64,000 nucleotides of DNA from Lytechinus pictus. Lineage: Eukaryota. Positions 1 through 54,125 of this stretch are shown here, piece after piece (within the stretch, counting starts at the first letter, position 1; the number at the start of each line of letters is the position of its first letter). A model generated the notes under the pieces. The model ran no database searches and was not told where the DNA came from. It saw only the letters and a list, made by a program, of their open reading frames with translations. A program made the position numbers and the translations under genes. Location: NCBI RefSeq assembly GCF_037042905.1, contig NC_087250.1:19718001-19782000 (forward strand), written 5' to 3'.

Positions 1-224
1 AACTACGTAGATTACGTCATTCTCTACCATCATGCAAATTTTCGTTGTGATCGTGCAATCCACGGCCGAGATCTTATAAGGGGGGGGGCAATAATACCCC
101 CCCCCCCCCCCCGGGAATGACAAGAATCAAAATACCCCGGTAGATTTAGGATTTAAAAAATTGTCAGTACGGTATATCATCGAGGATCTACATAGTCAGA
201 TAGTAGTACATGTAGATCTGGTAC

Positions 225-1540
225 CAGTGGCGTAGCTACGGGGGGGCCTGGGGGGCACGTGCCCCCCCTGAGATTTGGTGTGCCCCCCCAGAAAAAAATG
301 GCAGAGCAAAAAAAAATTTAAAAAGGGAGAAAGAAGAAAAGAAAAAAGGAAAAGAAGAAGAAAGACAGAAGAAAAAAAAGAAGAAGAAAATAAGAGGAGG
401 AAGACGAGTGAATGAAATAATGTAATTAAAAAACAAATCTCTTCATGTTACTATATAAAATTTTTGCTGGCGCTTCGCGCCAGAATTGCCTGTTCGATGA
501 GATTCATATCTTGCTCGATAGGCTGATATGGAGCAAATTTTGAAGTCAATATGCAACAAATATTTTAGCTCGGACATCAAGCTTTTATTATTATTTTTTT
601 CATTTACAAATTTAAGTGCTCTGTAAAATGTCCGTTTTATGGTCTACATATATCAGCATTTTAAGCTCAAGCTGCTTGGTCACATTGTTTGATTTGCGAA
701 GTTCATATTGTCTACGTGTATTCCATAATGTTCCATTAAACAAATGTATTCAGAATGCCCAGATTCTATAGGTCTAAATCTACAACACGCGCGATAGCCT
801 GCATGTTCTTTATTTAAAATGTACATGTACTTAAATTATCCAGTTTCACATCAGAATATCAATAATTGTCTGCTCACGCTTCACGATCGCATTATTAATG
901 ATACCCCATTGACTATATCCTATTTATGATTTACAAAATGTGAATAGAGTGTCCCGCTTTTAGGTCTAAAATCTCAATTTCTTCCTCTCGCGCTTCGCGC
1001 TCGCATCAATTTTTTAGTTACATACCTATCCCATTTATTAATACAAAAAGTGCTTAGAATGATCATTTTTTAGGTCGGAATGTAAAAAAAATTTGCTCGC
1101 GCTTCGCGCTCGCATTATTGAAATATATACCGTCTTCGTGGGTAACTGTAAGCAGTCCTTAACAGGTCCCTTTTCGATAATGCTAGAACAGTTGATAAAA
1201 ATTTCTGTTCGCGCTTGGCGTTCGCAGTACCCATCTAGTTACATACGAATCTTGTTCAGGATCACACATAACATCGCCCAGAAAATTAGATTAAAAATAC
1301 ATGAAAGTAAAAAAAAAAATCGCTCGCGCTTCGCGCTCGCACTTTTTATTAGGCTTATGAGATTATTTCATGTTTATGTCGTTTTATAAGAATAAAACTA
1401 AGAAGTGACTGATATAGGTGAAGATAATTTCGCGCCCCGTTCCCTATTGACGAAAGTCGGATCCGCCCTTGTGACACATACGCACACACCGGAAAAATGG
1501 TCGGTGCCCCCCCGGGAAAAAAATCCTAGCTACGCCACTG
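225..1540. mobile_element. Non-autonomous hAT-like element (CAGTGGCGTAGCTA termini) with internal GCGCTTCGCGCTCGC repeats
   Basis: TIR cagtggcgtagcta / tagctacgccactg; exact 8-bp TSD TCTGGTAC at 217-224 and 1541-1548; no ORF. Confidence 0.85.
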
Positions 1541-1679
1541 TCTGGTACAGTTACATATATAAACTAAACTTTGTGAAATCTTGAAATCTACACTGAAAAA
1601 TGTTCAAACTGAAGATCACCAACACAGATAAGAGCACGTGGGACAGTAACCCAGAGAGCTCCCGCCCGCGCAGCGGGCG

Positions 1680-2141
1680 GGAGCCCAGAAGCTCACAGTG
1701 TATTCTACCATTGCCACCGAACAAGGGTGATTTATGGTCTAAATATTTCTCCAAATGAATTGTGAAAACAAAAAGTGTACAATTACCACGATTATATGGA
1801 TGAAGGTCTAGCGAGTGGCAGATTCCTGACATCTGAGCACAGTCTGGAACCTCAAAAAAACCAAAAGTTCTCTCCTTCTACCCAGTCTCGATCGGCCGTT
1901 TTGTTACGATTTTTAACAAAAATGGCCGATCGAGACGGGGTAGAAGCAGAGAACTTTTCGTTTTTTTGAGGTTCCAGACTGTGCTCAGATGTCAGGAATC
2001 TGCCACTCGCTAGACCTTCATCCATATAATCGTGGTAATTGTACACTTTTTGTTTTCACAATTCATTTGGAGAAATATTTAGACCATAAATCACCCTTGT
2101 CCGGTGGCAATGGTAGAATACACTGTGAGCTTCTGGGCTCC
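1680..2141. repeat. Long near-perfect palindrome (foldback), arms ~225 bp, centre ~1910
   Basis: ggagcccagaagctcacagtg... mirrored by ...cactgtgagcttctgggctcc; ORF track shows mirror ORFs (1775+/2046-, 1832-/1989+). Confidence 0.9.
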
Positions 2142-5100
2142 GGCTCCCGCCCACGTACGTGCATAGCGCCAACTTAATGTGTTCCGCCATCTTGCTTGTT
2201 GGTTGCCGATAAAATGCGCATTTTCAGATTTTTTAACGCTCAGTTATTATCCATGACTGAAACATTGACCAATCAAAAACTAAGATTCTACAAGAAATAT
2301 GAATATTCATATACGAAAGTATAAACATAGATAATTCAGTTTTATGTGAAATTTAAACCCAATACTTCAAAATATGGTTAGTTTTATGTCTCTAAAATGA
2401 CCCTTAAAACCAGAATTTTATTAGTAAAAAATAAAGGTTTTCCCAAGTTGCCATGGTAACGCGGTCTGAGATATAAAAGCTTAGCAAACACTTCATTTCA
2501 GTGATCGAGGATGTATTTGTTTACGGTATACGTCTACATAAATTATAACATTTTTTTCCAGACCATGGATGAACTTTCAAAAAGAGACATTTTAGGCAAG
2601 TTTTTACGATTTCCGGCAATTTTCTGACACAGGCACTTTGAAGAGGTAATTTTTACAGAATTAGAAGAAGACATCATGGATTTTCCTAATTATCACGACG
2701 GATATGCAACTTACTTGTAAACAAATCAAACAAAGTCTATGATACATTTTCGATAATACAAAAAGAGACATTCAAGTCTCTGATTGAGAGCCGCAGATTG
2801 AACATTCGCACGGCGCAATGGTAGCGTTTTCGCCGAATTCGTCGGGGCGAAAACTCCAAGAGAGCCGTACCACTCACCAGTCCCGAACGCTGCGCTGTAT
2901 GTTTGATGATTTAACTGGTGCCATTTCGTGCTTATAAATTTGTTTTTTCTACAATGCCACTATCTCATTAAAATTGTTTGTCATGATAACATTGGAAATA
3001 TTATCGTTTAATGGCCCAAAGGATCGACTGTAATAAAAGATACTTTGAAATATTGTCAGAGAGTGATTAGTTAGGTGATGTTTATGGTCAGAATTTAGTC
3101 ATGGCTTCGGGTGAACTTACGCGAACGCGGTCACTTGCTCACGGGGCGAGTCGGCCTGGCCCTTTGGTGGAAGGCCGTTAGGCAACGTGCAGTGCAGCTA
3201 GAGCAGAGTTGGGGAGTTATAGGTATAAAAATGCTTTGAAATAAGTAATCTGCAAATATTTTTGTCTTATCCCTTTGGATTACTTAGATAAGAAATTCAA
3301 ATTCTCAAAGTTTAAATCAAATTTTAGACAGTGACAACAAAGAGTGGTGCTGTATGGGGGGGGGGGGGGTGGGGTCTTGCATGCCCCCAATTCACGAACA
3401 AGAAAAAAAAGGAAAAGGTAAGAGAATCTTGCGAAATTGTTCAATTGGATTTTTGTAACCAAAAGTCAAAATTATGCTTATGTCGCTTGCTTGCAACTAT
3501 ATATTTTATACATTTTGCCTGATACGCCATATCGTAGTACCCTCAATTATTTTCACTTGTTACGCCACTGACACGACTGATATAACATCTACTAGTTTAT
3601 GATAACATTATTTGGTTGCGGGATCAAAGCATCAGCTATATAGCTAAACATTTATACTTTATGCCTGTTCAACTTCCAATACAGGTTTAGGCCTGTATTT
3701 ATGAGATGTTAAGATCTATGGGTGCCTTTATTATTTTCATTTTCAATTAAAACAATTATTAATTATGTATTAATTTAGTATTAACCTCGATGATACATTT
3801 TATTGTATTAAATCGTACAATTTCTGTTGTATTAAGCCCCTTATTAAGCCCTTTTAAAAACATGCTCAGTAGCAGACCCCCCCCCCATATATAAAGACAA
3901 TAGAAGTGTATATAGAATTAATTGAACCCCCCCCCCTTATTGAGGACAAAATGAAAAAAAAATACTCAAAATAATCGACCGCCCCCCCCCCCCTTTGACG
4001 AGGCAGCTGTCGGTGGCCTGATGTCTTCATTGACTTCTTTTTGCTTGTAAAAATAATATTAAAGAAATAGGGGCTACTCTAAGTGTCCCCTGTGAAAATT
4101 GATTTGGATCTGCAAGTGCATGAGGCTGCGCCCCCTCCAACGTCATAGCTACCCCATATCTTTAGGTTCTAGCTCTCATATTTTTCAGCTCCCTGGTTTT
4201 TTGGAAGAAAAAAAAACGAGGCGAAAGAAAAGAGTGAAATAAATGAAATACGATTAATCAAAATTTGAGTTGTTTGAAAGAATTATACTTATCAGAGAAA
4301 CTAAATTAAATTCTACAACCATGAAGAATAACAGCAATCTTGATAAATTCTGTTTTTTTTTCAAAATCAGAACCAATCAACCTTTTTCTGATTATTCTGT
4401 CACTTTCCATATTTTGGAGAAAAAAATAAAAGTGTTCATTGACGCCCTGTACTGCATGATGAAACTGTATCCCCACTCGGCCCTCGTAACCCCCCCCCCC
4501 CTCTCTCTCCCTCTCCCCCTCCCCCACCACAATGCCCCTTGCTCATTTCTCTTATCTCACCTTGACCTTAATTAATTAATCTTAACTATTTGGCGGTACA
4601 GTCAAACGTGACTGGTCGCCATCATAGTTTCATCCCCAACAAACAAGGAACAAACAATAACAATTCTGTTTTTCGACCCAACATCATTCCTTTCAATACG
4701 CGTAAGGCTATACGTGGGCATGCACAAACAACGTGGGTTAACAAAAACTGACCCGCGTTTGGACTAAAATTGTGATTAAAATAAAAATGTTATAAATATG
4801 AAAAAAATATGTGTATAATGAAGGATATCTGATAAACGGAAAAACATCAATCGCTAATTCATAAAAATGCTGGAAAAGATTTGACAGAGGTTTTTAACAA
4901 CGGTAATCAAGGGGAATTAGTGTATGGGTGAATGGCGTTCGAGCTTTAGCCGGAGAGGGCGCGGGCCAAATCTGCCTGAATCTGGCAATATGGCGTCGTC
5001 CATTAAGCTGACGTTAGCCAGCGGCGACTGCACGTACGTGCGCCCGCTGCGCGGACGGGAGCTCTCTGGGTTAGTGGGACAGTTATTATTGCTCTGATTA

Positions 5101-5329
5101 ATGTCGGCCCGACGCTTGCCTTGGCTCGAGTTGACCCGAATCCTGTGCTTTTTTTGCTTATTTCGCAGCAATTACACAATTTCTTCCAGAATCCTTTGGC
5201 ACATACGGCATATTATTTATAAATATAGACAGACACTTTGGTGGTCATTTCATTGGATTCTGTACGAACTCATTTTGATATCGTTACCACAACTGGCATT
5301 TACCTAGTTAAAGTGTGCACTGTGTCTTT

Positions 5330-5760
5330 GCAGACTTGGGCCCTGAGCCCACCAGCGCAGCCTGTCCTATTCAGCATGCCGGCGCTCGGGGCAGCCACCC
5401 CGGCCGGGCAGTGTCAGTGCACGAAATCTAAAGCCAAAGGCAAGCCGCGCTCCGAAAAGAAAATCTTAGAAGATGGTTATCTAACTTACTGTTTGGTCTC
5501 CTGCGAATGCCTTCGAAGTCGTTATCCAAATCTGAACCTTGTTCTTAAAGTAGTAGAACTATTATTAACGGCCATCTTCGTCGCACTTAATTCTCGATCC
5601 AAAATTAGGCTGCAACGGCGAAAAACGAGGGCATTCCTTTTTCAAATTAAATGGTTGCGACTAGACTGCGCCAGTTGCATGCAGTGCAGCGCGCATGCGC
5701 AGGCTCGACGCCCGGCGGCGAATTAATTCTGCGGATCATGAATTTTTTATAGGGGGTGAG
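5330..5760 (-). promoter_or_regulatory. Putative promoter plus non-coding first exon module (inverted homologue of 8610-8657 + 10095-10500)
   Basis: NRF1-type palindrome GCGCATGCGC at 5691-5700, CpG-rich, GTAAGT donor on minus strand at 5484-5489; alignable to the copy near 10.1-10.5 kb. Confidence 0.5.
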
Positions 5761-6109
5761 CCCGGGGGGCGTGCATGGGGGGGGGGGGGGGTGAGCTAAC
5801 TAGATAGGGGGTTTGCATGACACCGGGGCATGACACCACTTGCGAAAAAAAAGTTTTAAAATAGATACAAACTTCTTTGACATATAAAGCTTCCTCTTGT
5901 TTGGTTTGGTTGGCAACCAGTTAAGAAATGATTATTTTTGCCACTGCTTTTGAAACTTTTTTTCTTTGAAGAATTATATACTTTACCTAAAATAAAAAAA
6001 TTCTGTACTATTTTTTTTAGTTTTACTTTTCCTTTTATAAGTAGAAATAGCCTTGCTAACATGGCAAGGTTGAAAAAATGGCAAAATAGTATGTGGCTTT
6101 GAAATTAAA

Positions 6110-6598
6110 CTTGTAAATTTCCTCGTCGTTGATTGGTAAAATTTGATGTCATAATCACGTCGTAATGTGGTCATATGAAAACGCAAATTTCTTTGTCGTT
6201 GTTTGCATGGTAAATAAATGATGTCATATCACGTCATAATGTGGTCATATAAAAATGCAAATTCATTTGTTGCAGATTGGTCGATAAATGACGTCGTAAT
6301 CACGTAATAATCTGGTCATATAAGAAAGCAAATTTACTTGTCGTAAATTGGTCAGTAAATGACGTCGTAATCACGTCATAATCTGGTCATATAAGCGAGC
6401 AAATTTACTTGTCGTAAATTGGTCAGTAAATGACGTCGAAATCACGTCATAATCTGGTCAAATAAAAATGCAAATGAAAGTTGCCATTCTAAGTCGTCAA
6501 AATGACGTCGTAAGAACGTCATAAATACGACGACATGACGAGTATTACCACTTTACGATCAGTTAATGACGTCATTACGACCGTGTCTGCTATCAGGG
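6110..6598 (-). mobile_element. Terminus of a CCC-ended (EnSpm/CACTA-like) element with ~62-bp subterminal GACGTC/CACGTC repeats
   Basis: Ends ...gtctgctatcaggg; repeated aaatgacgtcgtaatcacgtcataatctggtc units; other terminus not found in window. Confidence 0.55.
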
Positions 6599-6599
6599 A

Positions 6600-7410
6600 T
6601 ATTGCATTCAGTGTGGAGTTTCAGATCAGAATATCAAAAATTTTCTGCTCGCGCTTTGCGCTCACATTATTAATGTAAGAATATATCCAATTACCCATCA
6701 TTTTCTTGATTTTCAAAACATGAATAGAATGTCCCAATTATAGGTCTGAAATCTCAATTTTGTTTTCGCTCGCTCTTTGCGCTCGCATCAATTGTATAGT
6801 TATATACCTATCCTGTTCATGATTAGAAAAGTGCTTAAGATGTCCTGTTTTTAGGTCTGAAATCTCATTTTTAATTCCGCTCGCGCTTCGCGCTCGCATC
6901 AATTGTATATTTATATACCTATCCTGTTCTTGATTAGAAAAGTGCTTAGAATGTCTCGTTTTTTGGTCTGAAATCTCAATTTTGTTTCCGCTCGCGCTTC
7001 GCACTCGCATCTTATCCTGTTCATGATTGCAAAAAGTGCTTAGAATGTCCAGTATTTAGGTCGGAATGTCAATTTTTTCAGCTCGCGCTTCGCGCTCGCA
7101 TTATTTGATTGGTGATATATGAATCGTCTTAATGAGTAACTGCAAACATTCCTTATAACACTTCCCTTTCGATCAGACCAGAGCGTATATAAAAAATATC
7201 TGCTCGCACTGATCACGTTCGCAGTTATTATTTGTTACATACGCATCTTGTTCAGGACCACAAACATTGCTCAAAATATTCAATTTTTCAGGACAAAATA
7301 CATGATTTCCCCCCAAAAAAATAGCTCGCGTTTCGATCGCGCTCGACTTATCTCATTATATATCTATGTTCTTTTATAAGAAGAAAGCTAAGAAGTGACT
7401 GTCATATATT
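6600..7410. repeat. Partial copy of the GCGCTTCGCGCTCGC repeat family (as in 225-1540)
   Basis: Aligns by eye to ~845-1415 (cagaatatcaa...; ttttaggtctgaaatctc...; ataagaa..ctaagaagtgactg). Confidence 0.75.
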
Positions 7411-7743
7411 ATATGTATATATATATATATATGTGTGTGTGGGGGGAGGATTGGTTGGTGTGTGTGTGGTGCCCTTAGAGGTGTGTGTGTGTGTGTAATT
7501 ATGGAAAATTCAATTATTGTGTCCCCCCCACCTTTGAGGAGAGATTTCAGCACCCCTACTGAAAAAATCGTTCCCAGGTCCCTTACGAAAATGTCGTGTG
7601 GTATATCTGTGTGGTACCCGGCTTTACCACACGAATTACCACATGAATGTAGGTTACCACATGAACATCTGTGGTAATTTTCCATATCCTTGTGTGGTAA
7701 CGTCAGCTGGTGGCTGTGGTAATTTGTTGTCTATGTGGTACTT

Positions 7744-8570
7744 CTGTGGTAAATCAAAATTACCACATGAATGCATGTTACCTCATATGCCATTGTGTGG
7801 TAATGTAAATTCAAATATGTGGTATTTGTGTGGTATTGTTATATTTCTGTGGTAAATCAAAATTACCACATGAATGCATGTTACCTCATGATGCCATTGT
7901 GTGGTAATGTAAATTCAAATATGTGGTATTTGTGTGGTATTGTTATATTTCTTTGGTAAATCAAAATTACCACATGAATGCATGTTACCTCATGATGCCA
8001 TTGTGTGGTAATGTAAATTCAAATATGTGGTATGTGTGGTATTGTTATATTTCTGTGGTAAATCAAAATTACCACAGGAATGCATGTTACCTCATGATGC
8101 CATTGTGTGGTAATGTAAATTCAAATATGTGGTATTTGTGTATTGTATACTTCTGTGGTAAAACAAAATTACCACATGAATGCTTTACCTCATGATGCCA
8201 TTGTGTGGTAATGTAAATTCAAATATGTGGTATTTGTGTGGTATTTTTATACTGCTGTGGTAAATCAAAATTACCACATATGAAAGCATGTTTCCACATT
8301 AGCCCATTGTGTGGTAATGTAAATTCAAATATGTGGTATATTTGTGGTGTTATGCTCTGCGGTAAATCAAACTTACCGCATGAATGCAATACCACATGAT
8401 GCCATTGTGTGTCAATTCAAATATGTGGTATTTGTGTGGAATTATACTGCTGTGGTAAATCAAAATTACCACATGAAAGCATGTTACGTCATAGCCCATT
8501 GTGTAGTACTGTCAATTCAAATATGTGGTATTTGTGTGTTATTGCCCTTCTGTTGAAAATCAGAAATACC
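7744..8570. repeat. Tandem array, ~103-bp unit, about 8 copies, TGTGGT-rich (left subterminal repeat)
   Basis: ctgtggtaaatcaaaattaccacatgaatgcatg unit recurs at ~7744, 7847, 7951, 8053, 8153 and onward. Confidence 0.9.
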
Positions 8571-8657
8571 ACACAAAAAAAGTTTTCACACCCATAACTT
8601 AGACCCCCCTCAGCTCACCCCCTATCAAAATTAAAAATTGATTCGCCGGAGGGGGGG

Positions 8658-10094
8658 CAGGGTGACCAGACGTCCCGTATTTCCCGGGATTGTCCCGTAT
8701 TTTGCTTCTTTGTCCCGGCGTCCCGACAAACCCTTCCCGGGACGCCTATTTGTCCCGTATTTCAGAATATTGAACAAAATATATTTAAAAGTGACGAATT
8801 TTCATTAAAATAACCAACAGATGACGAAGCAGAGACAACAATAAAATCGATAAATAAACTTTTGCAAGGTGATTTTCTTGCTAACCCAATCGAACTGGCC
8901 TCCTGCCTTTGTGTGACAGGCTAGTACTAGCAAGGCATGTAGGATCGGAGCAGATTCTCTACACCAAACACAATGAAACATGCCAAAATAATCACAAAAT
9001 CGGCGGGAAATTTGTATAATTATATTATGGGTTCTCAGATTACTGATTTGGGGATGTAATCGGAGGAACAAGTTATTGAGTTTTCATAACTAGATCTAGT
9101 TGTTTCAACTTTCGTTTTGAGTCTTGTTCTATATAATGCCGCGATGTTTCATCTAATTTTTAAGTAAAAAAAGAATCACTTTGAAATTTTATTCATTTCT
9201 AAAACATTTTTTTAAAATATATTTTAAAAACACCAAATATCATTATGATTTTTGTTAGATGATTGGAATTTTTTGCTTGAAGTTTGAACTTTTCTATCCT
9301 TCTTTCTTCATCCTTCTATCCTTCCTGCTTGCCCGTTTTTGTTCCATCTATCTCTATTTCCTATTTGCCTTTCCTGATCCTTTCTCTCTCTCTGTGTTCA
9401 TTTTTTTTCCTCCCTTTTTCTTACCCGTCTTCTTTATCAAATTTCCTTTTTTTTATTTCCTCCATTCTTTCTTTCAACTTTTTTCTTCCCCTCCCTTCCT
9501 CTCCTTTTTATTTTAATTCTTTCTCTTCTTCCATTATGTTTTCACTCCTTCCTCACTTCATTCTTCCTCCCTCTCTTTCTTTCATTCTTTATTTCATTTT
9601 TCCTTATAATTCTTTCCCTTATTATTTCTCTCCCTCCCTTAATTCCTTCCTTCCCTCCTCCCTTACTGTTTCCTTCTTTCTTTGTTTCTTTCTTTCAAAG
9701 AATGAAGAAAACATTTTTCTTTCCTTCATTCTTTCTTTCCTCCTCCTTTTTCTTACTTTTTTTCTTTCTCTCCTTTATTTTGTCTTTCACACATGTATTC
9801 TTCTTCCATTTCTTTCTTTTTCTCTCTTTCTGTATTCAATTCAAAGAATGGCGGAAACTTTTTTTCTCTTTTTTATTCTAACTTTCTTTTATTCTTTTTT
9901 TATTTTTTCCTTCATTTTCCCCTTAATTTTTTTTCTTCTCTTTTCTTTCGCCTTTTCTTTCTTTCCTTCATTCTTTCGTTCACCCTCCCTTCCAATTTTT
10001 TTTAAGTTTTTTACAGGTGTAACACTGTGTAGCCTTCTTTGTTGATCTTTTTTCGATTGTCCCTTATTTCATTTTGTGAAATCTTGTCACCCTG
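8658..10094. mobile_element. hAT-like non-autonomous element (CAGGGTGAC termini) containing a CT-rich tract
   Basis: TIR cagggtgaccaga / tcttgtcaccctg; inserted in a poly-G run; removing it restores continuity with the 5330-5760 homologue. Confidence 0.7.
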
Positions 10095-10297
10095 GGGGGG
10101 GGGGGGGGGCGGCGACAGGCTTGCGCATGCGCACTTACCGCCAACATTTGAAAAGAATACCGTTTGCGTTGCGTTGCAGTTTATTGAGCTCGATCGAGAA
10201 GTGGGACGAAGAAGGCCGTTAATAATTCAACTACTTAAAGAATGCGGGTTAGATGTGGACGACTTCGAAGACATTTGCAGTAGGCTAAACAGTAAGT
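10095..10297 (+). promoter_or_regulatory. Putative promoter plus non-coding first exon inside the 10.8-kb element
   Basis: GCGCATGCGC at 10123-10132; donor CA|GTAAGT at 10292; both conserved in the inverted copy at 5.3-5.7 kb. Confidence 0.5.
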
Positions 10298-10472
10298 TAG
10301 ATAACCATTTTCTATGATTTTCTTTTCGTAGTTTGTTAAATGCCCCGGCTTGCAACTAGCTAAAGATTTCGTCAATGAAAATGACATGACACTGGCAATC
10401 CCATCCTGTCTAACCGGGCGCTCGCCCGGCCCCGAGCGCCTGCTCGCTGCTGTGATGTGGACCACTGGCTGG

Positions 10473-12487
10473 TGGTCTCAAGTCTGCACACAGTCACAGC
10501 ACACCTAAACGATTTGAGTTTAGATTTAACGTGAATTTCCTGTTATTTTACAAAATCTTTCAATTGATGATGTTCCTTGTATTCTTATGAGTAAGTGTGC
10601 AAAAAGTCTCATTAAAAATTAAGAGAAATAATTGATTTTCTTGGGAAAATATCTCGGCCAGTCATGGTCATTTACTTGCATTTTGATTGAACAAAATTAT
10701 TAAGTTAGTGCCGGTACTGGTACGGTAGCCCGACAGCAGATCAGAATGACATGAGAAATTGAGAATGAACGTTAAGAATATTACTTAGAAATTAGCGGGA
10801 AAATTACCACCCGGTATGTGGAACAATTCATTTTATTTTTATGATAAAAATTTCTTGATAACTATCGGGAAACGGTATCATGTAAAAATGAAAGGCTACG
10901 TCGGACCCGGGTCGCACCGCGGACAATTCAGTTTAACATGCATTGTAGCGTATAGCATGCATGTCCAGCTCAGCTAGGCGCGCTGGCAACGCAGGCTAGT
11001 GTGGCTGCTCAGCTCAGGCTTGGCTGGCTGGCTAGCCGGCTGGAAGTGGAAATGCGCCAGTTTCTATGCATGGATATTTTTCCGGTCATCAATAAGAAGA
11101 TCGTAGTTTGTTTGTTGCCGAAATGATTCTGAAACATCCTTTACTTTTGAGGATTGATGATGAATGATGCAACAATTATTTCCGATGACTTTTCCCCACT
11201 TTTTATGATTTTTTTTTGCCCGTGACGCATATAGAGCTTGTGGAATTTACGTATGTCGCATGCGACGCGTGTTCTACACTGGCGAGAACGTTGCTGGTAG
11301 GATGGGGGTCGGGTGTCCGGACAGTTTTATCTTTTTGAAGCCTTCCTTTTATCTTTGGATTACACTAAAAATATGAATTCAATACTTGTTATCATCTTCT
11401 ATTTTGTTCTTTATAATATTTCCTAATAATTTGTACTAAAAATTGATGGAACTTTGCTTTTTTTCCAAATGACTTTCTAAATGACACACAACCTGTCTGG
11501 ACACACAACAACTGGGTAATACTAATAGTGGCCGATGTCTGCGCACTTATTCACATGATGCGAAGATTTCGATAAGAAAGCACAGTCACAGAGGCTGCAT
11601 TTTGAGGACGTCACATGAAATGCCCTGGAAAGAATTCCATATGCAATTCCAATGTACCCCCCACCAACATGATAAAAAATAAGATTGTTGAGACTTAATT
11701 CCATTCCAGTTCGTTCACTTCAGATTTTTCTATAATTTTTTTACCCTTGTTTTGGCACCTTAGTTGGGACTTGAGATCACCTCGTTTTATTTGCAGTCAA
11801 GACCTGTTCCTGCTATGCTAGCAAGAAGTGCTGATGCCGGAAGGGGTATTTTAACGATTATCAGCCAATAGTTCGCCTAGACTTGACTCACAGACCCTTG
11901 AGTAAATAAACCGATGTCTATGGACAATTACACACACTAGATACATCCATACATGCTCGAAATTTGACGGAATAAAGCCATATTTTAGTATGTATTTCCA
12001 CTCCTAGTACTATCCACTACCCCATCATATATGTTCTATATTGTGCTAGATATATTATTCTGAACCTTCTTCATGTTTTTATTTTCAATTTTAGTGGGGT
12101 TGCATATGGAACTCTTGCCAATGCCCTAAATTCATTATTTTCCAACCATTTTAAGTCAGATTTTTTATGAATAGATCTGTTTATGACATTCCAGGAGAAA
12201 GAGAGGGAGACCCAAAACTACTTGTCCTGGCATCACATTTGAGGAGGAGATGAAGTCGGTGAATATGACCTAGCCCGGGGGAGTTTCCAGAAGACGGCCC
12301 AGAACCACTGGCCGCCAGGAGTGGAGGTCCTTTGTTGTTGCTCTACATGTCAGGAGGCATCGGGCAGTAGGTAAGACTAAGTACAGTAGGCTCTTTCAGG
12401 TGTAAAGTTTATTTTTTGTTTGGAGTCGTTGCGTATCTTCCATTATCAGAATCGCGCAGATTCGGATGTGCGCAATCTTAGGGCACC
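10473..12487. mobile_element. Longer, interrupted relative of the MITE at 37548-37990
   Basis: Three blocks (10510-10665, 11535-11628, 12427-12487) match the 37.5-38.0 kb element in the same order. Confidence 0.6.
12190..12385 (+). mobile_element. RTE-clade LINE 3' remnant
   Basis: Frameshifted translation RKRGRPKTT...FEEEMKSVNMT...KTAQN...WRSFVVALH, typical of RTE ORF C-termini. Confidence 0.65.
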
Positions 12488-13844
12488 TTATCTGTCAATG
12501 GTCCTAACTGTACTTAGAGGACTCTGTGATGATATTTTTAACATTTTTACATTGTACAAGGGGTATTTTCATTCACGGAGCTAGACAAGTCTCTGTTCCC
12601 TGTAGAACTTGGTACACAAAGATGGATTTCCCTTAAAAAATCCACCTTTCCCACAATAATTTTGGGCAAACATTTGATTTTTCCAATTTGTAAGCCTTTT
12701 GTTATCTAAATATACAAAATTAAGGCTTAAGAAATGTTACTTTTAAGCAGGTAAACATTTTGAAGGATCACTTGCTTGCAATTCCCAAGCTATATAACAC
12801 AATGACATGACCTTTAAGTCGAGAGACGTCCATATGCAAGAAAATACAGAGGGAATTGGTGCAAATGCATAGCTGATTGTGCTAGTACTAGATTCCTGGC
12901 TGACGTGTATCGGTTTGGACGTTCTAATGACAAGTTTAGAGTGTAATTTGGCGCTAATAGAGTTTCACAACGGTTGGCATGATTGAGGTTAACATTTTAT
13001 TTTTTTTTCTCTCTTTTGCAGCCCTGGTAGAAGCACCATCTTGATACCATCATTCAAACTCTCATCAGCTGTATCATTATAGGTGGACTAAAAGAACAAT
13101 ATTCATGCAGATATAATGGTGTGTACAAATTTATCCTTTGTGGAAGGTATTTTTTATAATTATTGTGTTATTTTGATTATTTACATGTGCATGAACATGA
13201 GATGCAGTTAAATAATTTTGATTTTGTAACCACTCTGATACAAAGCTTGTCTAATAATTAATGCCCTTACAAGGTTCATGCTGTTGTCAATTCAAACGTA
13301 TTAGATAGGCATAAGTGAAACATCAACATCTGACATGCATTTATTATCACATCAGAAGGGATCTTCGTTATGTGAAATTGGCAACTTGTAATTTCTTATT
13401 CAAACTGATGGAATTATCCCATAACCATTTAAAACACATTTAAAAAAAGCATGAATTAAAATCATGTTTAATTAAAATAAATATTTTTTTTTTAACTTTA
13501 AAATGTCCTTCCCTATACAGAGATGGTTTGGAGGTGCAGCAGATCTTGAGGGCATCAAGCCCCCCTCCCCCGACCTGACTTTACATGTTAATATTTGAAG
13601 TATAAATATGGAACAAACCCCACATTGTTTTTTAATCATTTTTTAAAAAGTTTGGAAATTGATATCGAAACCATGTAGTTTTTAATGAATATTAAATAGT
13701 TAATGCAGGAAAGGCTTTTATGTTTATCTTCTTCTGTTATTTATTGCAGATGCCTTAAGTTGAAATGGAAGGTGTCCTGAATCTGCACCCATTCATCTGG
13801 TTTCGTAACTCCTTTCATAGTGCTATTGGAACCTGCTCCCTACC

Positions 13845-14380
13845 AGTATAACATCAAACAGATTGGAAGAATAAAGGCCAATGGGAAGTGCCTTTTATAT
13901 TTCTACTTGCCACAAAGCAGTCCATGGTTTAGCGCTATCTAAACTGGACTATTGTAATGCTCTTCGTGCTTGAATTAGGGCGATCTGGACTGACTGCATA
14001 TAGTACAGAATGCTGCATCTATTGTGCCATTTGCCATACGCCAACTTCGCTGGCTGCAAGTCAAGGAAAGGATATACATGAACATCAGTGTCCGTCTCCT
14101 GATTTTCAAAGTCATTGACAGAGATCCAGATTACATGTTTTATAAGGAATCCCTTGTGCGTCATTTTCATTCTAGGCGCACTTGCCTTTTTATTTTTGTG
14201 ATCATTACGCACCTACGAATTACATGTAGCTACTGGTGATGCAACTTTCTCCACTACTGCTCCAAGGCCGTGGAATTAGCTCCTTCCTCTCCTCCAGTTG
14301 TCAACAACCTTGGATCAATCCAAATACAATTTGAGAAGACCTACCATCTTGATCTTTGCTCTGTACTTACAACAATACTG
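13845..14380 (+). mobile_element. L2/CR1-type LINE ORF2 C-terminal remnant
   Basis: Broken frames read YNIKQIGRI, LSKLDYCNAL, VQNAA, IRQLRWLQVKERI..LLIFK; typical L2 post-RT motifs. Confidence 0.75.
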
Positions 14381-15715
14381 TCACTGTCTGGTAATTTGAA
14401 TTTTTTTAAATCTCATGCGCTTTGTATCTCGCAAAATAACGTGTTGTGTAAAAGCGAACATGCATTGAGGTCAAGTTTAAGGGTAACCATGGATATTGCC
14501 TTTTATTACTTTTGAACAAAACTGAAAAATTCATCCAAATTAGACAAGGGATAATAAAGTAATGTATGACATTCTAACCTCTGCATTATTTTGGTGAAAG
14601 AGCTCTAAGCATATATATGCAAGTAGCAAGCTGATGATGTCATACTGACGTACATTGTACATGTACACGTATCCCCAACTTATTATTTTGTATATAAAAT
14701 TGTGCATTTAATTTTGTTTACCAAGAATGAAACAAATCGGATTGTAAACTGTATTGATGTGACTTACCTGTATTGATTATTGCTGGAAGTTCTTTTGCTA
14801 CATGGGATTGGAAGACATACTTATTACACACATGAAGTAAATTATTATTTTATCTGGTAACATGAGAACAATAAAAATGTGGGCATGATATCATAAACTT
14901 ACATGTATCTACTTGCATGTGTTGATGACCAATATTTTTGTAATTATTTTTTTTTAAATTTTATCTGATTTTGATAAAATTTTCACTATTTTGCATGGTA
15001 AAAATTACTTTATTTTAGATTATGTTGAGCCCGTATCATATACAAGTACAACTTTAAAGATAAATTACCAGTTGTAGTAACAATCTTAAAATGAGTTCAA
15101 ACAGAACCCAATAGAATTACCAGCAAAATATAAAAGACATGTGCCATAATTAATTATAGCTCGGGAAGAAAATGTGTAATTGCTGAGAAATGAGCAAAAT
15201 AAGCATGTAATTCTATCCAATGTCAGGTATTTTTCAAATCAATCATAATACACTGTCCTGTCCCACATGTTCTTTTCTGTGTTAGTGATCATCAAAATAA
15301 TTAATTTTAAGTTCAAAATTAGTGATTTTACAAAAATACAAGCTTACATTAATGTACCAGATCTAGAGATTATGTACAATATTTTGACAATTTCTCATGA
15401 AATAATTGTTTGCTGCAACTGCTGTCTTTTTAATACGTTTAAGTGATAGTGTAATACAACCACAAACTTTTCTTAAGAATTAATGTACATGTATGATTCT
15501 TTCACCCAAATTTACATGCATTGATACTGTTGACTACTTGCCAAAAGTTCCTGCTAAAAGCCTTTTTTAACGATGTACATGCTTTTATAGACGACCTGCC
15601 AAAACATTGTATTGTATTATATTCAAGGTCCAACCAAAAAGAGATGAATAAAATGTTTGAAGGAAATTGAAATTAACTTTAAAAATGATAGAGCTCTGTC
15701 AATGCAGTATTATTA

Positions 15716-16006
15716 CAGGGTTCCCACAGTCATGGAAAATCCTGGAAAAAAATTGGTCATGGAAAGTCAGGGATATGTGAAAAGTCATGGAATTGCATTT
15801 ACCTCTTGGCTATGACAGCTTTCTAGTTTTTTATGTCTCACAACTCTCATACTCTGTGATTATACTCTACTATTATAATTGGTGTTCATGATCATAACAT
15901 GTCTGATTTTGTAAACTGTGCCAGAAAGGAATTAAGTCATGGAAAGCAGCAATTTAGTCATGGAGAGGTCATGGAATTCTGTTTTCAAATTTCTGTGGGA
16001 ACCATG
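15716..16006. mobile_element. hAT-like MITE with repeated GTCATGGAA motifs
   Basis: Termini cagggttcccacag / ctgtgggaaccatg; TSD not clear. Confidence 0.55.
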
Positions 16007-16086
16007 AATAGGTTTGTGCACTTGACACAGTGTGCACTACAGATGAACTTTGTAATGCCATGATATAAACCAGTACAATATCTTAA

Positions 16087-16808
16087 AGGAAAATAAAAAC
16101 CAAAATATAATACCACATGATACCATTGATAAATACAGGACAATGAAAATGAATCCACTCATATACCCCCAATCCGATGTCCCAGTATGGAGTACCACCT
16201 TTTCAAAGTTGGCATCTTCTGGTACAAAGTCTATGGATGGGGATTATTCCGTCAGCGACGAACTACATCTCTAAACGTTTGGGCATTAAATATTCTATTT
16301 CATCGATAATAAATCAAATGTACAGATAAAACTCATAAAATATTAATTAAAATTTGTTTAATATTATATGATAGGTTCAAATTACGACTTGATGAGTTTT
16401 AATGATAAAAATTACACCCTAATCTACGATTTACAAATTGGCAGCGGAAATTGGGGTGTAAATCTTATCATTAAAACTCATCAAATTGTATTTTGAACCT
16501 ACCATATATTAAACAAATTTTAACTAATATTTTTATGAGTTTTATCTGTACATTTGATTTGTTATTGATAAAATAGAATATATAATGCCTAAACGTTTAG
16601 AGATGTAGTTCGTCGCTGATGTAATAATTTCCTAACTAACCCCGCGAAAATGGCGACCTCCATCCAGAAACTTCGAACCATACTGTAAGAGGCCAACTTT
16701 GAAAAGGTGGTACTCCGTAATTGGATTAGGGTATGAGTGGATTCATGTTGATTGTCCTGTATTTATCAATAATATCATGTGATATTATGTTTTGGGTGTT
16801 ATTTTCCT
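16087..16808. mobile_element. TTAA-flanked foldback MITE (Kolobok-like), palindromic over almost its whole length
   Basis: ttaa|aggaaaataa ... ttattttcct|ttaa; arms mirror each other to a centre near 16445. Confidence 0.85.
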
Positions 16809-17494
16809 TTAATTCAGATATTACATGCCAGGGTATTGTCCTAGTTTTCATTTTCTCCAAATACATATTATCATCTCTCGTCTATTTCTACTTGCCCTTC
16901 AGCCTTGAAGTAAACTTGGGATAATTATGCATTTTGTTATACGCAATTTTGAGTACAGTGCACTTTGCCGCAGCTACTTATATGATATTACCTATTGTAG
17001 ACACATCCTTATGTTTTGTTCATTTTCTTAAAAACGATTAAGAGTTTAATCATTTTTGTCTTTAAGCATAAAACAAAGAGTAAATCAGTCCATTCTGTAT
17101 GTGTGACCTGCAAAAAAACTACAATGGTCGTTAATTTGGTTTGCTGAAAAGCCAGATAACCTTTGAGGTAACTTTTTAAAGTATTTAGAAGAAATGTATC
17201 TGTTTTAAAAGTATTTATATGCACTGTAACTAATTTCTTTGATAGTTACTATTATGTTACACTGTTTGTACAGTAAAGCAGCTGTTACACAATTTTTGTC
17301 AATATCAAATCTAAACCAGTATTGTAAATTGATGACTCTATGAGCTAAATACCAGTACTTTCTATATCACTTGTAAAATCATTTGTTGTCTGTTCATTGA
17401 AGGTGTTGTATTTTCTTAATCTTATAAAAGTACATAGGGTCATGAACACATTCTACTGCTACCAAAATCATACCCATGATCTGTGATGTATCTA

Positions 17495-18375
17495 ACCAGT
17501 TACCACACACATTGCAACACACCAGTTGCAACATACATTATCATGCATCAGTTATCACACATCTAGTTACCACACACATTTTGGGTAATGACTCTGATGC
17601 ATGGTATTATGTGTATTATGTACAATATGTGTGGTAACTGGTTAGTGTTTACCACACACCATTTACCACACGAATTACCTCATATTTTACCACACACCAG
17701 TTACCACATGCATTACCACACACCAGTTACGTAACTGGTGTGTGGTAGTGTATGTGGTAACGTGTGTGGTAAATCGTGTGTAGTAATGCATGTGGTAACC
17801 GGTGTGTGGTAAAATGTGACGTAATTTGTGTGGTAAGGCATGTGGTAAAATATGAGGTAATTTGTGTGTGGTAACCCGTGTGGTAACCGGTGTGTGGTAA
17901 AATGTGAGGTAATTTGTGTGGTAAGGCGTGTGGTAAAATATGAGGTAATTCGTGTGGTAAATGATGTGTGGTAACGCGTGTGGTAACTGGTGTGCGGTAA
18001 AATGTGAGGTAATTTGTGTGGTAAATGGTGTGTGGTAATGCATGTCGTAACTGGTGTGTGGTAAATGGTGTGGTAAATGTCGTGTGATAATCTATGTGGT
18101 AAATGGTATGTGGTAAAAATTGTTACCATAAATTAATCCCTTGTGTGGTAAATGTTACCATATATTAATCCATTCATGTGGTATTCCTGTGGTAATGTTG
18201 TGTGGTAAATGTTCCAATTTACCACAGGACAATACCACACGACATTACCACACATTACCACACAATACCACAGGACATAAAGACATAGCATTACCACACA
18301 ACAATATATGTGGTAATCGTGTGGTACAGTCCTATGGTAATTATATGGTATTACCACAGGACATTTTTGTAAGGG
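17495..18375. repeat. TGTGGTAA/TTACCACA-rich right subterminal array of the 10.8-kb element
   Basis: Dozens of TGTGGTAA or TTACCACA motifs in both orientations, ending at the TIR. Confidence 0.85.
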
Positions 18376-18546
18376 GTCCCTGTTATATAGGCCCTATATA
18401 ATCGATTAAAAATCTTGATCACCACCAGCATGACTATGGTCCAACCATGGTCCCAGCTAGCAAGCTGACGTTGGTTGGGCCAATGCGGGGTGCCGATGTC
18501 GGCCACATTCGGCGAATATCGGATTCCATAGACCAATGAAAATTAG

Positions 18547-19408: not shown

Positions 19409-19534
19409 TTAACTTTTGTGAGAAAGAAACTGGGCATTGAATCAACGTTGCGGTCGGTGCTAATCTACGTGGAATTGAAAACGTAAACACAAATATCGGC
19501 AGCTTGAAATTAACTCACTATTTTCCCTGAAATA

Positions 19535-22500
19535 ATGTCTGACTGGGACTGGGGATCGAAGAAAACAGGTAAATATTTTGAAATTACTGGACTGATTTAT
19601 TCAACTCTATTTACTTTATTGCTTAACAAATAAGTTAATGGAAATCTTTCCTTTATTTTCTTGAAACTCTTCAAACAGTACTGCAACGTGTCCCACACGT
19701 ACAATTTTGTGTTTGTAAACTCTTCATAATCAACACCAGTTTTCTCACTCGTTGACAGATCGATTCCTCATTCCAACTCTTTTCTATATCATATGTAACA
19801 AATTATAGAATAAAGTGCTCAAATATAGGACACTTAAGCATGATTGGACCAAAACAAAAATATAGGCCTAATCATTGAAATATTGAATCAAATGAAATTA
19901 ATCATGTCTATTTGTGGTTGAAAACTTTAGTAGCCTAGTTTTATTTTTTTGTAAAAATCAAATTTTGAAAAAATGTGGTAGGCCTAAATGGAAATTATTC
20001 ACTTATACTACCAGAAGCTTTTTTTTGGCCAAATACAAGAAGTGTAAAGTTGTGCGCCGCGATCAATTTTGGCAATTTAAACTGCGCTCTAGGCCCTAAA
20101 GACTAAACCCCAAAATAATCGCTTGATTGTTGAGAAAACATTTTTTATTTCAGCTGCGCAAATGCCGATTTTGAATTATTTCTATTAATAATTTTGATGT
20201 AGAAATCTGTAAATGATAATTATTTACTTTCCATATGGACCTCTTTCGGCTCTAAATATCGGACGTCTTCGCTTAGCTCCGGGTGGCTTCGTTCTGAAAT
20301 GCGAGCGTGGGCGTGTGAACAGCACGCTTTCCAGTGCAATCGGACGAGATGTCCGATATTTGGGAGGGTGTTGAATTTCCCGCCGTGTGGAAACCCGCGA
20401 TGGCCATTGCAGATCTTTTTGCGATAGATTGAATATGTGTCATATTGGTGGCGATATTTCCTGCGAAAATCACTTCCCCCTTACAAGATTTTTTTTGGTC
20501 ATTGATCTTTTGGAGTTAAAAATTAGTGAGGGTCATAAGAATCTTAACCCCTGGAATAGCTTTTCTGAGCAGCAACCTGGATCTATTGTGTGTGCAGTTC
20601 AACAGTACATGTATCACATGTATGCAAGTCCCCCGCCAGTGTGGATCCCTGTAGTTGAAGTCTTTTTCGTCCAATATTTGGACACTACTCATTACTCAAG
20701 TCATTTACCGGCCAAATCATGGTTTTTGGAACCACTCGTTGATTTGTGCATGTGCACGTGTGTACAAAGTAAATGGAGGTGGAAAATAGGGAACCATGCG
20801 TTGTGACTGAACTATAAAGCGCTGCTGTACGAAGTAAACGGTGGTTCCCAATTTCACGATAATGACCATTTACCCAGTCTGTCCAAATCAGGAAGAAGTA
20901 GATTGAATTTGCAATTCAATATTGGGCCTGAGGCTTTTTAAGCTAATCACTCAGTCTTGGATTTAACCCACTTATTTATTGAACAAGGTTATGATATAAC
21001 AAGGTTAAACTGTTATGATAAAACCTTGTTCTCTGTTGGGACTGTTAGGACTCATCCGTTTTTGTCCGCATGATTTTAGTCGCCAACTTCAGTCCATTTC
21101 AAACTTGTAAAAGATTTTACCCGTCCCTATTGACCTGTGTGTGAATTAATTCCTTGTTATTTTTTTTTAATAGGTGGACAAAACAACCACGGTGGTAAAA
21201 TGAGTACGGAGGACATGCTTGAAGCCGAAAATGACCGAATGACACTCGGTCTAGCAGCTAAGGTCTCAACATTGAAATCTGTGAGTAGTCTATGGGTTCA
21301 TAATCACTTAGGTCTGAGTGGGCGCGTCGTGGTCTAGTGGTTCTGACTCTCGCCTTTCAAACAGAGGGTTGTGGGTTCGAATCCTAGCCATGGCGTGTTT
21401 TCCTTCAGCAAGAAATTTATCCACATTGTGCTGTGCTCGACCCAGGTGAGGTAAATGGGTATCAGCAGCAAGTAATTCCTCAAAAAGCTGTGCGCACCAG
21501 AATCGGTAGACCAGTTTAACCGGGGTAATATAGGAGCGCCTTGAGCACCTAGCAAGGTGGATACGTGCGCTATACAAATCCTATATTATTATTGTTATCA
21601 GATAATCTTATAACATATGGGCTGAATGCATTTGGTCCAATATCAAATTGAATCGCTATTTGTCTTACAGTACACTATCTAATACCATTTAGTCTAATCT
21701 AATTCTTGTGTAGTTAAATGCACAGAGGGCCCAATTTCCACTTGACATTAAGGTCGTTGGTCACATAGGTCGTTGGATGCCAGAAAAGTCCTTTTCTTTA
21801 ATATTTTTTTATGAATCATTTGATCAATCAGCTTTGGCAGACTGGCAGTGATACACTCAACTACAACTATGGAAAGCCAGCAGCATCAACAACTAAAATG
21901 CATGTTTGTTCAAAATATTTTCCAGATATGACGTATTCATCTTCACGCTTTCATATGTTTTTTGGCAATTCATCATGCTCTACGTATACAAAAGGCCAAT
22001 GTTTTGAATTTATCAGCTTATTTGGCACTTTACCTTTCAAAACTGTAAGAATAATATCGTAAATAGTTTTCTTTACCAGTCATGCATGGATACAGAACAC
22101 GGTATACATAAAAAAGGATGCAATCAATGTAAACAAAATCTTGACATTTTTTGCTTTTCATAATTTAACACCAACTTCAACCATGGTTTTAGTTAAACCA
22201 GACTTCAGAATAATGACCTTTACCTTTTTTCTTGTTTTCTTTCAGCTTGCCAAGGATATGGAGAATGACACAAATGACCAAAATGTTTATCTTGATGGAA
22301 TGGTAAGACAAGAGATATGTTTGATCTGGAAGGGGGGGGTAGAGTTAGGGACAGTCACCAAAGACACATCCATGACCAGGGGGGTGTTTCACAAAGTATG
22401 ACTAAAGTCGCACTTAAATGCTGACGCGTGCATGATATGCAACGCGCGATCTTATTGATAGATACACAGTAGTGCGCATCCTCTTGTCATGATCTGACCA

Positions 22501-23364
22501 ATGCGGTCAAGCCTTTTATACTGTACGCAACTCGGTATTATGTATATGTGACTTTAACTCACGCTTAAATCTTTGTGAAACACCCCCCATATTTAGGTAT
22601 CATTTTTTTAATATGATACACATTATTAAGTGAAAAAAGTCCTTGAGCTGGGCTATATCAGTTTATACTTGTTTAGGGGGGTAAAAGGAATACAGAAAGT
22701 ATTCGGAAGTAAATTATGTAAATAGAGTATTAATTTGGCAAGTTCAGAAGTAGAACACACCTAGAGAGGTTTAGAAGCATGTGGTGGCCATTAAAGACAG
22801 ATTTCCTTGTAGACTGGTGGCTGCTACCTGGCCCTGGGAAATGGGGATGCTAGGGGTGCTGAATAACCCCCAAGATTTTCCTACGGGGTGTTGCATGTGT
22901 TATTTTCCATAGGCAGCACCTCCTGAAACTCTGGAAGGTGTGACCCAGATGACCTTCATTTTGTAGTGAAACCCTTTTTTTTTGCTTTTCAAATTTACAT
23001 CAGCACCAACACTAAAAAAAAATCGTTCCCAGGCCCTGGGCCGCTATTCTGTTCATGCCCACAAGAAGGAATGACAATTTTACTCTTTACATCATCGATA
23101 ATGCTACAGGTCTTTTTCAAAGACACCAAATGAAAAACAGAGGTGAACTGTTTCACCCAAAATGTGTCTTTGTGTTCCTTTTTTCCTATCCAGGGTGATG
23201 ACTTCTCCAGCTCCGAAGGCCTCCTAAGCGGAACTGTAAAGCGGCTGGACGGCATGCTGTCGTCCGGCCGCGGCAATCGCAAGCTCATGTGCTACCTGAT
23301 CTTAGGACTCGTTCTATTGTTCGTCTTTGCGTATCTCCTGTTATCTCGAGTGACTGGGCACTGA
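19535..23364 (+). CDS. BET1L: BET1-like Golgi Qc-SNARE (GS15), 122 aa; exons 19535-19568, 21174-21280, 22246-22302, 23194-23364
   Basis: All introns GT-AG with consistent phases (1,0,0); protein MSDWDWGSKKTGG...EDMLEAENDRMTLGLAAKVSTLKSLAKDMENDTNDQNVYLDGMGDDFSSSEGLLSGTVKRLDGMLSSGRGNRKLMCYLILGLVLLFVFAYLLLSRVTGH has a SNARE coil and C-terminal TM and resembles vertebrate BET1L. Confidence 0.93.
21320..21592 (+). mobile_element. tRNA-derived SINE in BET1L intron 2
   Basis: A box tggtctagtgg, B box ggttcgaatcc, central cacattgtgctgtgctcgacccaggtgaggtaaatgggta (CORE/Meta-like), 3' gcgctatacaaat plus (TAT)n tail. Confidence 0.85.
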
Positions 23365-23649
23365 CAGTGGATGAGTGTCGAACATTGAGATTGAGGATCA
23401 GATATGATTATATTTTTTTCAGGACTACTTCGCTCTTTTTAGTGGGACTCTGAATTGGCACCTAGAGACAGACTTCTCTACTGCGATGGAGTTGAACGAG
23501 ATCATTGTGCGGAGATCACTGTGAACTTCTGTACGCTGAAGATTTGTATAATTTCGAAAGCTGGACACGACTCTACCATTCTGAGTCCTACTACTTCTGT
23601 ACAGATGCAGCATATAGAGACTGACTTTCTATTTATTGCTTATTTCTAT

Positions 23650-30708: not shown

Positions 30709-31433
30709 CACTAAGCACAAAGTGCTAAAAAATAACACCTATGGGCGTGTATTCTCTATACGAGCTCTCAAAAGTACTTAGAGCGTATCTCACTTTTGTA
30801 TAGGCCCTAATAGAAATTACGACTTTCATACGGTAATTAATTGCCAATTAGTCTACTGCCAACTCCTCCCCTCACCACATGGTCTACTTTTATTTAGTCT
30901 ATTCCGTCTATCAACATTTCGTCTAACAACCATTTGGTCCATTAACCATTTGGTCCAATCATCGCTTCGTCTAATCACCATTTCATCTCATAACCAGTTT
31001 GTCTAATATCCATTTCATTTTCATTCATTTTGCACAATTTAACACTTAGTGTTAGTGATTTAGTCCAATTAGACCAAATGGTATATGCACTAATTGGCTA
31101 TTGGATCAACTGGTTATTAGACGGGATGGCAGTAGACTAAATGAAAGTAGACCATGTCGAACTGATGGTCGAATTGGCATTAGACGAATTGGAAATAAAC
31201 CCTTCCATACATGATATGCCATAATCTTTTACAAATAAATGATGTATATGAATAATGAGATGAAAGTTTGACAATAAATCACATGGCATCGCATATACTG
31301 TCACATAATTACAGGTATAGTTTCTATGAGTGCCATCAGCCTGTGCACAGATTAAACATGTTTCATCTTCTGCCGATAGAGGCACTAGGTCCCCCTTTCC
31401 CCATATAAAAAAGTACTATGGTATTACCAAAAT

Positions 31434-42037: not shown

Positions 42038-42349
42038 GATGAGTTCTTGCCGTCTGAAGCACCCAACGAAATCTGTCAAAATCGAAAAAAAAAAAAAAAA
42101 ACACATCTACACCTAAAATGTTATAAGACAAAAAGTATCTGTGTGTTGATAACATTAATAATGCATATTAATAGGTAAGCTTTATAGTGCGCCAAATCCA
42201 TTCTGCAGAGTGCCCAAGGCGCAAAAGAAAAAAAAAGAAAGAGGGTGAAAGGAAGTATACACATTTATGTAATTATGAAACAGGGAAGTGGGAATTTAGA
42301 AACTCTTACTTCCTTCATGTCCTTGATAAACAGAACGAGCTATCATTAA

Positions 42350-53656: not shown

Positions 53657-54125
53657 ATATGTGGCCCCTCAAAATGTTTGCCTCATTACGCCATCGCCTG
53701 TTCACGCCATAGGACCGGGAAATGTTTGGCTCTTGCCCCCCCCCCTCCCCCCGGCGGCGCATGTTACGCCCCTAGCTGTCCTGATGATACAGTCACACTG
53801 AATGAAACCGACTCCAAAACGACCGATGATATAATTAATGTCATTGCTATTAACATTATCAGCTTTGATCGGACTGGAGACGATTTCACCAATTTGAGTG
53901 TAGTATAAGAGTGCAGATAATATTGAGCTTTGCCGTGTGATAGAATATCTCTATTCAAAGTACTTTGAATTGTGTTTTCATTGTCATAAGATGTCATGGC
54001 AATGGCATCAATTAAATAAAGTAGCAACGTACTATATGATGTCCCTGGGCGTATACTTAAGTCTATGAAACTGTGTGTCTATAAAACTGTAATTTTGTCC
54101 TCCAACTTCCGTTAGTGGCGATATC
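53657..54125 (+). repeat. Direct duplication of ~470 bp; second copy at 55690-56758 is interrupted by a MITE
   Basis: atatgtggcccctcaaaatgtttgcctcattacgcc ... ccgttagtggcgatatc in both copies. Confidence 0.92.

Follow-up and report, generated by a model that had tools for sequence, protein, structure and literature searches.

Why should two transposons with different ends carry what looks like the same promoter and first exon? The question is raised by a 64-kb stretch of Lytechinus pictus DNA (contig NC_087250.1, positions 19,718,001 to 19,782,000), hereafter called the window, in which two elements with CCC-type termini lie back to back within an older repeat. Element 1 runs leftward from a terminus at position 6598, element 2 runs rightward from position 7580, and each appears to enclose one copy of a shared module with a GC-rich promoter-like stretch, a putative first exon and the start of an intron. 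The window is of animal type, has a G+C content of ~36% and is dense with nested DNA transposons; all counts below refer to it unless otherwise given. Our analysis leans modestly toward a single old copying event in which the promoter-bearing body of one En/Spm-like lineage came to lie behind the left end of a second. An initial annotation of the locus had proposed a transposon design in which a constrained promoter cassette is paired with exchangeable ends.

Module 1 occupies positions 5307-5769 on the minus strand. Module 2 lies on the plus strand and is divided by a hAT-like insert (8658-10094) into an upstream part (8605-8657) and a main part (10095-10512). The insert has 9-bp inverted ends, CAGGGTGAC, and 8-bp flanks that are alike at seven of eight positions, as had been described. 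When it was removed, the two modules aligned with a score of 280, compared to a maximum of 39 in 200 shuffles, and 326 of 419 ungapped columns were identical. The proposed homology is therefore real, and its limits are the module coordinates given above. With cheaper gap extension, 324 of 399 columns were identical with 22 gaps, and both GCGCATGCGC sites were then aligned together. Overall, the modules are 78-81% identical over ~400 columns.

The motifs lie where the initial annotation had placed them. CTCACCCCCTAT is found at 8614 (plus) in the upstream part of module 2 and at 5760 (minus) in module 1, and GCGCATGCGC matches at 10123-10132 and 5691-5700, respectively. The first exon of module 2 extends to 10291 and its donor string begins at 10292 (plus); the predicted donor of module 1 spans 5480-5489 on the minus strand, with its GT beginning at 5489. 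Beyond the intron start, each module ends in the tip of a third repeat, the AAGTCTG inverted-repeat family. GCGCATGCGC is the consensus of NRF1, whose sea-urchin homologue is P3A2, according to the available text of PMC10810270. It occurs three times in the window, compared to 0.02 occurrences expected, and the third site (53302) has no module. The exact donor string had no match in the metagenome contigs and none in the prokaryote genome contigs that were searched. A third donor-like match in the window (55263-55310) proved AT-rich and was rejected on inspection of the sequence.

Element 2 (7580-18375, plus strand) is a complete non-autonomous En/Spm-like element with CCCTTAC ends and a 2-bp target duplication, GT, on both sides. 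Its left terminus and a TGTGGT subterminal array with a 102-104-bp unit fill 7580-8578, and a right TGTGGT array with the opposite terminus fills 17497-18375 on the minus strand. The terminal inverted repeats are alike at 15 of 17 and 22 of 26 positions. Excision of the element in silico restores the terminus of an older hAT-like repeat that bears a 111-bp satellite and is host to both CCC elements (part at 6600-7579, plus strand; terminus completed by 18378-18382). Subterminal repeats line both ends, as in EnSpm/CACTA (CMC) elements. Pieces of other repeats make up its interior. As expected of a non-autonomous element, Pfam showed no transposase there; EnSpm/CACTA (CMC) elements or their autonomous partners encode a DDE transposase with C(2)C and H(3-4)H motifs. 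Six-frame Pfam scanning of 10300-17501 and 1-5702 returned one Connexin match only, below the cut-off and with no passing stretch, and an Rfam scan of 1-24000 gave no match. Because the termini are CCC...GGG rather than CA and no transposase could be tied to them, we file both elements as En/Spm-like and not as CACTA members. In animals, EnSpm families end in CCC and duplicate 2 bp of their target; literature searching gave no paper stating so. All family labels used here (hAT-like, Kolobok-like, En/Spm-like) are based on patterns of termini and target duplications rather than on transposases. In the available text of PMC12730594, hAT elements are given 8-bp target duplications, and EnSpm/CACTA (CMC) elements 2-5-bp duplications with termini that read CACTA, or CA..TG in most lineages. 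The available text of PMC9587614 assigns TTAA targets and RR ends to Kolobok, and we drew on parts of PMC11219922 and PMC8978399 for general features only.

The visible end of element 1 (6115-6598, minus strand) consists of the terminus CCCTGATAGC at 6598 and a 71-bp GACGTC subterminal array. Its second end and its target duplication were not found within the window, and the remainder of the element is either beyond the window or lost. To the left, module 1 is cut by a nested stack (157-5310, minus strand), which is a Kolobok-like element split by two insertions. One, a 3.4-kb element (1647-5073), has inverted ends of ~33 bp and is flanked by a perfect duplication of 9 bp, GTGGGACAG; the other is a hAT-like element (225-1540) with an 8-bp duplication. 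The three Kolobok-like pieces rejoin as a single unit, which could be aligned to a relative at ~15037-15433 (score 265 vs a shuffle maximum of 84), and no clean TTAA is found at its junction with module 1. Positions 1-152 are occupied by another repeat. Since the nested stack fills the sequence from 5310 to the left edge of the window, the homology is cut off by an insertion on its 3' side. Module 1 might have been taken for a short truncated copy, a view that was given up after the stack had been resolved. The 3.4-kb element is Mutator-like by its ends and 9-bp duplication pattern. A near-perfect palindrome of 468 bp (1677-2144) overlaps its left terminus at the outer edge, and a decayed protein-like frame within it (2560-2950) had no match in Pfam when stops were read as X.

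How the modules are seated behind the two ends differs. The initial annotation had placed each module just inside its CCC terminus and pointing inward. The inward orientation is correct for both, but the distance from the terminus is 838 nt in element 1 and 1034 nt in element 2. The distance from the array edge to the shared motif is 36 nt in element 2 vs 355 nt in element 1, whose 320-nt spacer is unmatched in element 2. On the left, the homology starts at most ~30 nt from the element 2 array; this edge is C-rich in both copies and could be placed only approximately.

We then compared the ends themselves. The two termini, CCCTGATAGC at 6598 (minus) and CCCTTAC at 7580 (plus), match at 8 of their first 17 positions, which confirms that they differ. 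The subterminal arrays had also been called unrelated, and left-to-left comparison agrees with this description (score 31 vs a shuffle mean of 34), but both arrays hold a TGGT(A/C)A core, which recurs in several CCC-type arrays of the window. The element 1 array does align with the right array of element 2 with a score of 66, a value that no shuffle reached, whether in 100 plain shuffles or in two block-shuffle sets of 200 each. This likeness is generic, because an unrelated array at 31.4-32.4 kb scores 70-84. A metagenome contig, L001, that was found with the element 2 terminus has a right end identical at 26 of 26 positions and arrays ~69-74% alike over long stretches. This suggests that the ends of the element 2 family did not drift at a comparable internal divergence. 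L001 (331-1250) has a right-type end only, with an array that is organised differently and no module.

The module was searched for inside eight CCC-type ends, over the inner 2 kb of each (1.6 kb in L001). The element 1 end was positive (score 280) and the other seven, three of which belong to one element region, scored 24-48. Another CCC-type element region, at 31395-33531, lacks the module; it has TACCATGGTA motifs and a 144-bp array of seven copies with 97% matches. Single CCC-type ends at 18452 and 59992 (CCCAGCTAGCA and CCCTGCTAGCA) resemble the element 1 terminus; their partners were not found in the window.

The AAGTCTG family, which supplies the last 40-55 nt of both modules, continues in element 2 as four pieces (10477-12487, plus strand) through intron 1 and beyond. 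A solo compact copy at ~37550-37990 has no module beside it. About 11 nt at the tip are common to both modules and absent from the solo copy. A nested insertion common to both modules points to one ancestral copy of the body.

Transcription was examined by mapping 4 of 11 listed runs onto 10030-17480 at 85% likeness, using ~6% of each raw run. A joint between 10291 and 12195 with GT..AG borders was found in three of the four runs (four reads in X9, none in X11, contig depths of 184 in X1 and 70 in X5), with 49, 33 and 29 nt on the shorter side. Donor 10292 is therefore spliced, as the initial annotation had suggested for RNA-seq to reveal. The joint 12370-13022 was present in all four runs and 13118-13750 in three, which defines exon 2 (12195-12370), exon 3 (13022-13118) and exon 4 (13750-14182 at least) on the plus strand. 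First mates fell on the minus strand at the joints, which is consistent with plus-strand RNA if the libraries were stranded in the usual way. The records do not list X1 and X5 as RNA; their GT..AG joints suggest that they are. Contigs with one or two differences over 200-870 letters indicate that the RNA comes from this locus or a very close copy, and variant starts of exon 4 indicate more diverged relatives. The spliced RNA model has no stop-free stretch longer than 91 codons and no Met-started frame longer than 53, and the four-exon transcript is non-coding. Part of exon 4 resembles what we take to be the 3' fragment of a LINE. The promoter/first-exon reading thus stands for module 2 or a close relative, given the spliced donor and the NRF1 consensus in its candidate promoter. 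Initiation near 10140, which had also been expected, was not seen, as no start site stood out in the four runs. Eight read ends piled up at 10094 in one run, but they lie on the insert terminus and were not accepted as a start site.

Several other RNA features of element 2 were noted. One X1 contig joins 10649-11594 and 11625-12426, resembling the compact solo AAGTCTG form. In three of four runs, 13462 is linked backward to 12515 through 32 letters of other sequence, which suggests a rearranged relative or a circular form. At 16790-17340, contig depth reached 262 in X1 and 90 in X5 with one or two differences, and X9 and X11 had no reads at 17002-17250. The 3' part of the RNA may be stage- or tissue-specific and end near the right array.

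A coding role for exon 1 was considered and rejected. The 52-residue frame of module 2 has three stops in module 1, mismatches are spread evenly by codon position (6, 5 and 4 of 30), and no homologue was found among longer proteins; one weak 17-residue match in a repetitive protein of 1423 residues was set aside.

If the module were a constrained cassette, its functional parts should be better kept than their flanks, as the initial annotation had claimed for motif and donor. The two-sequence tests gave no significant excess. In the 399-column alignment, GCGCATGCGC is identical at 10 of 10 positions (Fisher p = 0.12) and the donor at 9 of 9 (p = 0.15). The exon is identical at 89 of 110 positions vs 81% elsewhere (p = 0.60). 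Intron positions +7 to +40 are identical at 31 of 34 (p = 0.09), and the later intron at 103 of 136. The longest identical run is 22 (P = 0.54), and the best windows of 30, 50 and 73 columns, with gaps counted, gave P values of 0.67, 0.41 and 0.13. Among the observations that the initial annotation had named as speaking against it were conservation no higher than in the flanks and a lack of transcription; conservation of motif and donor was not significantly higher, whereas transcription was detected.

That transposons reuse a constrained promoter cassette with exchangeable ends as a design is thus improbable. In its favour, both copies retain the motif, the donor and the intron bases that follow, donor 10292 is used and two different ends flank the module. 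On the other side, there is no significant conservation peak, the module is absent inside all seven of the other CCC-type ends tested, module 2 is split by a 1.4-kb insert, and the homology ends at an insertion cut after taking in the tip of a third repeat. Moreover, the RNA frame of at most 91 codons leaves no clear product for selection. The main rival to a copying event is plain descent with turnover of the ends. Here, both elements would derive from a common ancestral En/Spm-like family, the promoter and untranslated first exon in the module would have belonged to this family from the outset, and ends and arrays would have been replaced stepwise as the protein that binds them changed. A transcript that runs from just inside the left array through the interior, as in element 2, matches the layout of maize En/Spm. 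The module has the same position and inward orientation in both elements, and TGGT(A/C)A is present in both arrays. In the available text of PMC2613891, the tnpA of maize En/Spm is multi-exon, and subterminal repeats diverge widely among CACTA families within a single species whose tnp2 sequences are 76% alike across 1 kb. The same text, however, gives the inverted repeats as the conserved part of soybean CACTA elements, and here the terminal 17 nt match at eight positions only, while L001 keeps all 26 of its end. The 320-nt spacer of element 1 has no equivalent in element 2, and the Pfam scans found no transposase remnant tying the two elements together. We regard plain descent as unlikely, though it is the most credible of the alternatives.

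Two further alternatives change what is taken to be mobile. The module and the AAGTCTG repeat could together be a third mobile element, which would span 8604-12511 in element 2 and have been inserted separately near both CCC ends. The 7-bp string ACTTAGA stands at 8597, by the left edge of the homology, and again at 12512, where the repeat stops on the right, RNA joints point to a boundary near 12515, and the repeat does stand alone at 37550-37990. But ACTTAGA occurs four times in the first 20 kb, the ends of 8604-12511 are not inverted repeats, the solo copy lacks the module, and two independent insertions would have needed the same orientation and position, which makes this explanation rather doubtful, more so than plain descent. 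It is very improbable that element 1 is merely 550 bp long (6051-6598) and module 1 a separate relic, outside any CCC element there. A weak terminus look-alike is present at 6051, ranking 19th-24th in the window with 22-30-nt queries, but it falls to 223rd with a 12-nt query, it has no matching 2-bp duplication, and the host satellite is not resumed to its left.

The copying of a promoter-bearing body behind a second end is favoured by several observations. The modules are 78-81% identical while the ends match at 8 of 17 positions, L001 keeps the right end of element 2, divergence is even along the stretch, both modules carry the same third-repeat tip, and the homology starts close to the element 2 array. 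Copying could have proceeded by template-switch gap repair, or by a Pack-CACTA-type pairing of neighbouring ends, with a breakpoint that would lie at the edge of the element 2 array. NRF1/P3A2 may then drive the RNA, to judge from the consensus; the promoter would have kept working, and the non-coding RNA through repeat debris would be its by-product. A local event and an event elsewhere in the genome appear equally probable to us. The nearness of the copies (2.8 kb apart) and their inversion fit a local event, but they are equally compatible with a capture at another site and later insertion of the product into this repeat-rich region. The shared piece may be much longer than 460 nt and reach into the body of element 1 outside the window. 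The module may also have originated as a captured host promoter, although no source gene was found in the 64 kb.

Several points weigh against this account. The conservation tests have low power, because 10 of 10 and 9 of 9 cannot be significant at an 81% background. The donor region is the best kept (73 nt at 89%), and mild constraint there is still possible. Near the donor, the two indels of the exon core each measure 3 nt, and transitions make up only 25 of the 75 mismatches, a pattern that could reflect deeper divergence with kept blocks. Just two copies of the module were seen in the 64 kb, and the extent of element 1, like its link to module 1, is deduced from the one end in the window. 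The left breakpoint shows no clear microhomology. L001 is a single contig whose array similarity may be motif-level only. Finally, at 85% likeness the splice junctions may stem from close relatives of element 2.

The elements may work like non-autonomous En/Spm elements with a captured interior. As described in the available text of PMC2613891 and PMC8978399, maize En/Spm and plant CACTA elements also have short inverted ends, each followed by several hundred nt of subterminal repeats with family-specific motifs, and a multi-exon transcript across the interior. They differ in having CACTA ends and 3-bp duplications, in contrast to CCC...GGG and 2 bp here, and the present elements, unlike maize En/Spm, have no transposase or TnpA-like frame and a non-coding RNA. 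The Arabidopsis Pack-CACTA hybrids are likewise non-autonomous and, in the available text of PMC6379663, arise by adjacent insertion with loss of one end and gain of new interiors; hybrid ends have been proposed for them. Those hybrids involve one family, with 27 of 28 direct, whereas here two families lie back to back and share a promoter and first exon. Animal Pack-TIRs resemble the event proposed here in template-switch capture of mainly nearby DNA (57% within 15 kb of the source) and in that many are transcribed (available text of PMC8277862). What they capture is host sequence, in pieces of 224 bp at the median, while the source here is apparently a transposon body and the piece is at least 460 nt. 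Like NRF1/P3A2 promoters as they are portrayed in the available text of PMC10810270, the module combines the exact GCGCATGCGC consensus with a GC- and CpG-rich stretch upstream of a used donor. No paper on two families with a common interior was found, in a literature search that was thin on subscription papers and Repbase reports.

The locus would thus present an animal DNA transposon with a working promoter and a spliced non-coding RNA made from repeat debris, in two differently ended families with a common interior. Since a common interior is combined with different ends, trees of such families will conflict depending on whether they are built from ends or from interiors, which is useful to know in repeat annotation. 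Such elements are also a possible source of lineage-specific long non-coding RNAs. The case would be weightier if end-swapping were repeated and selected, which two copies cannot show. Speculatively, and with little confidence, we suggest that transcribed non-autonomous bodies are re-packaged between the ends of active CCC families, such that the same promoter would be found under selection behind at least three unrelated termini. If true, a promoter-driven non-coding gene would persist by moving between successive pairs of ends, leaving an old pair for a new one.

The remainder of the window contains other features. A small spliced gene at 19530-23365, presumably encoding the SNARE BET1, has its first exon ~1.1 kb past the right end of element 2. 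A single-exon frame of 463 codons (40715-42106, minus strand) reads like a receptor that we assume to be of the rhodopsin type. Two exon-like frames at 33988-35239 (132 and 138 codons) gave no convincing Pfam family. At 53657-56758 there is a recent direct duplication whose copies are 94-97% alike, and one copy contains a TTAA-type palindromic element.

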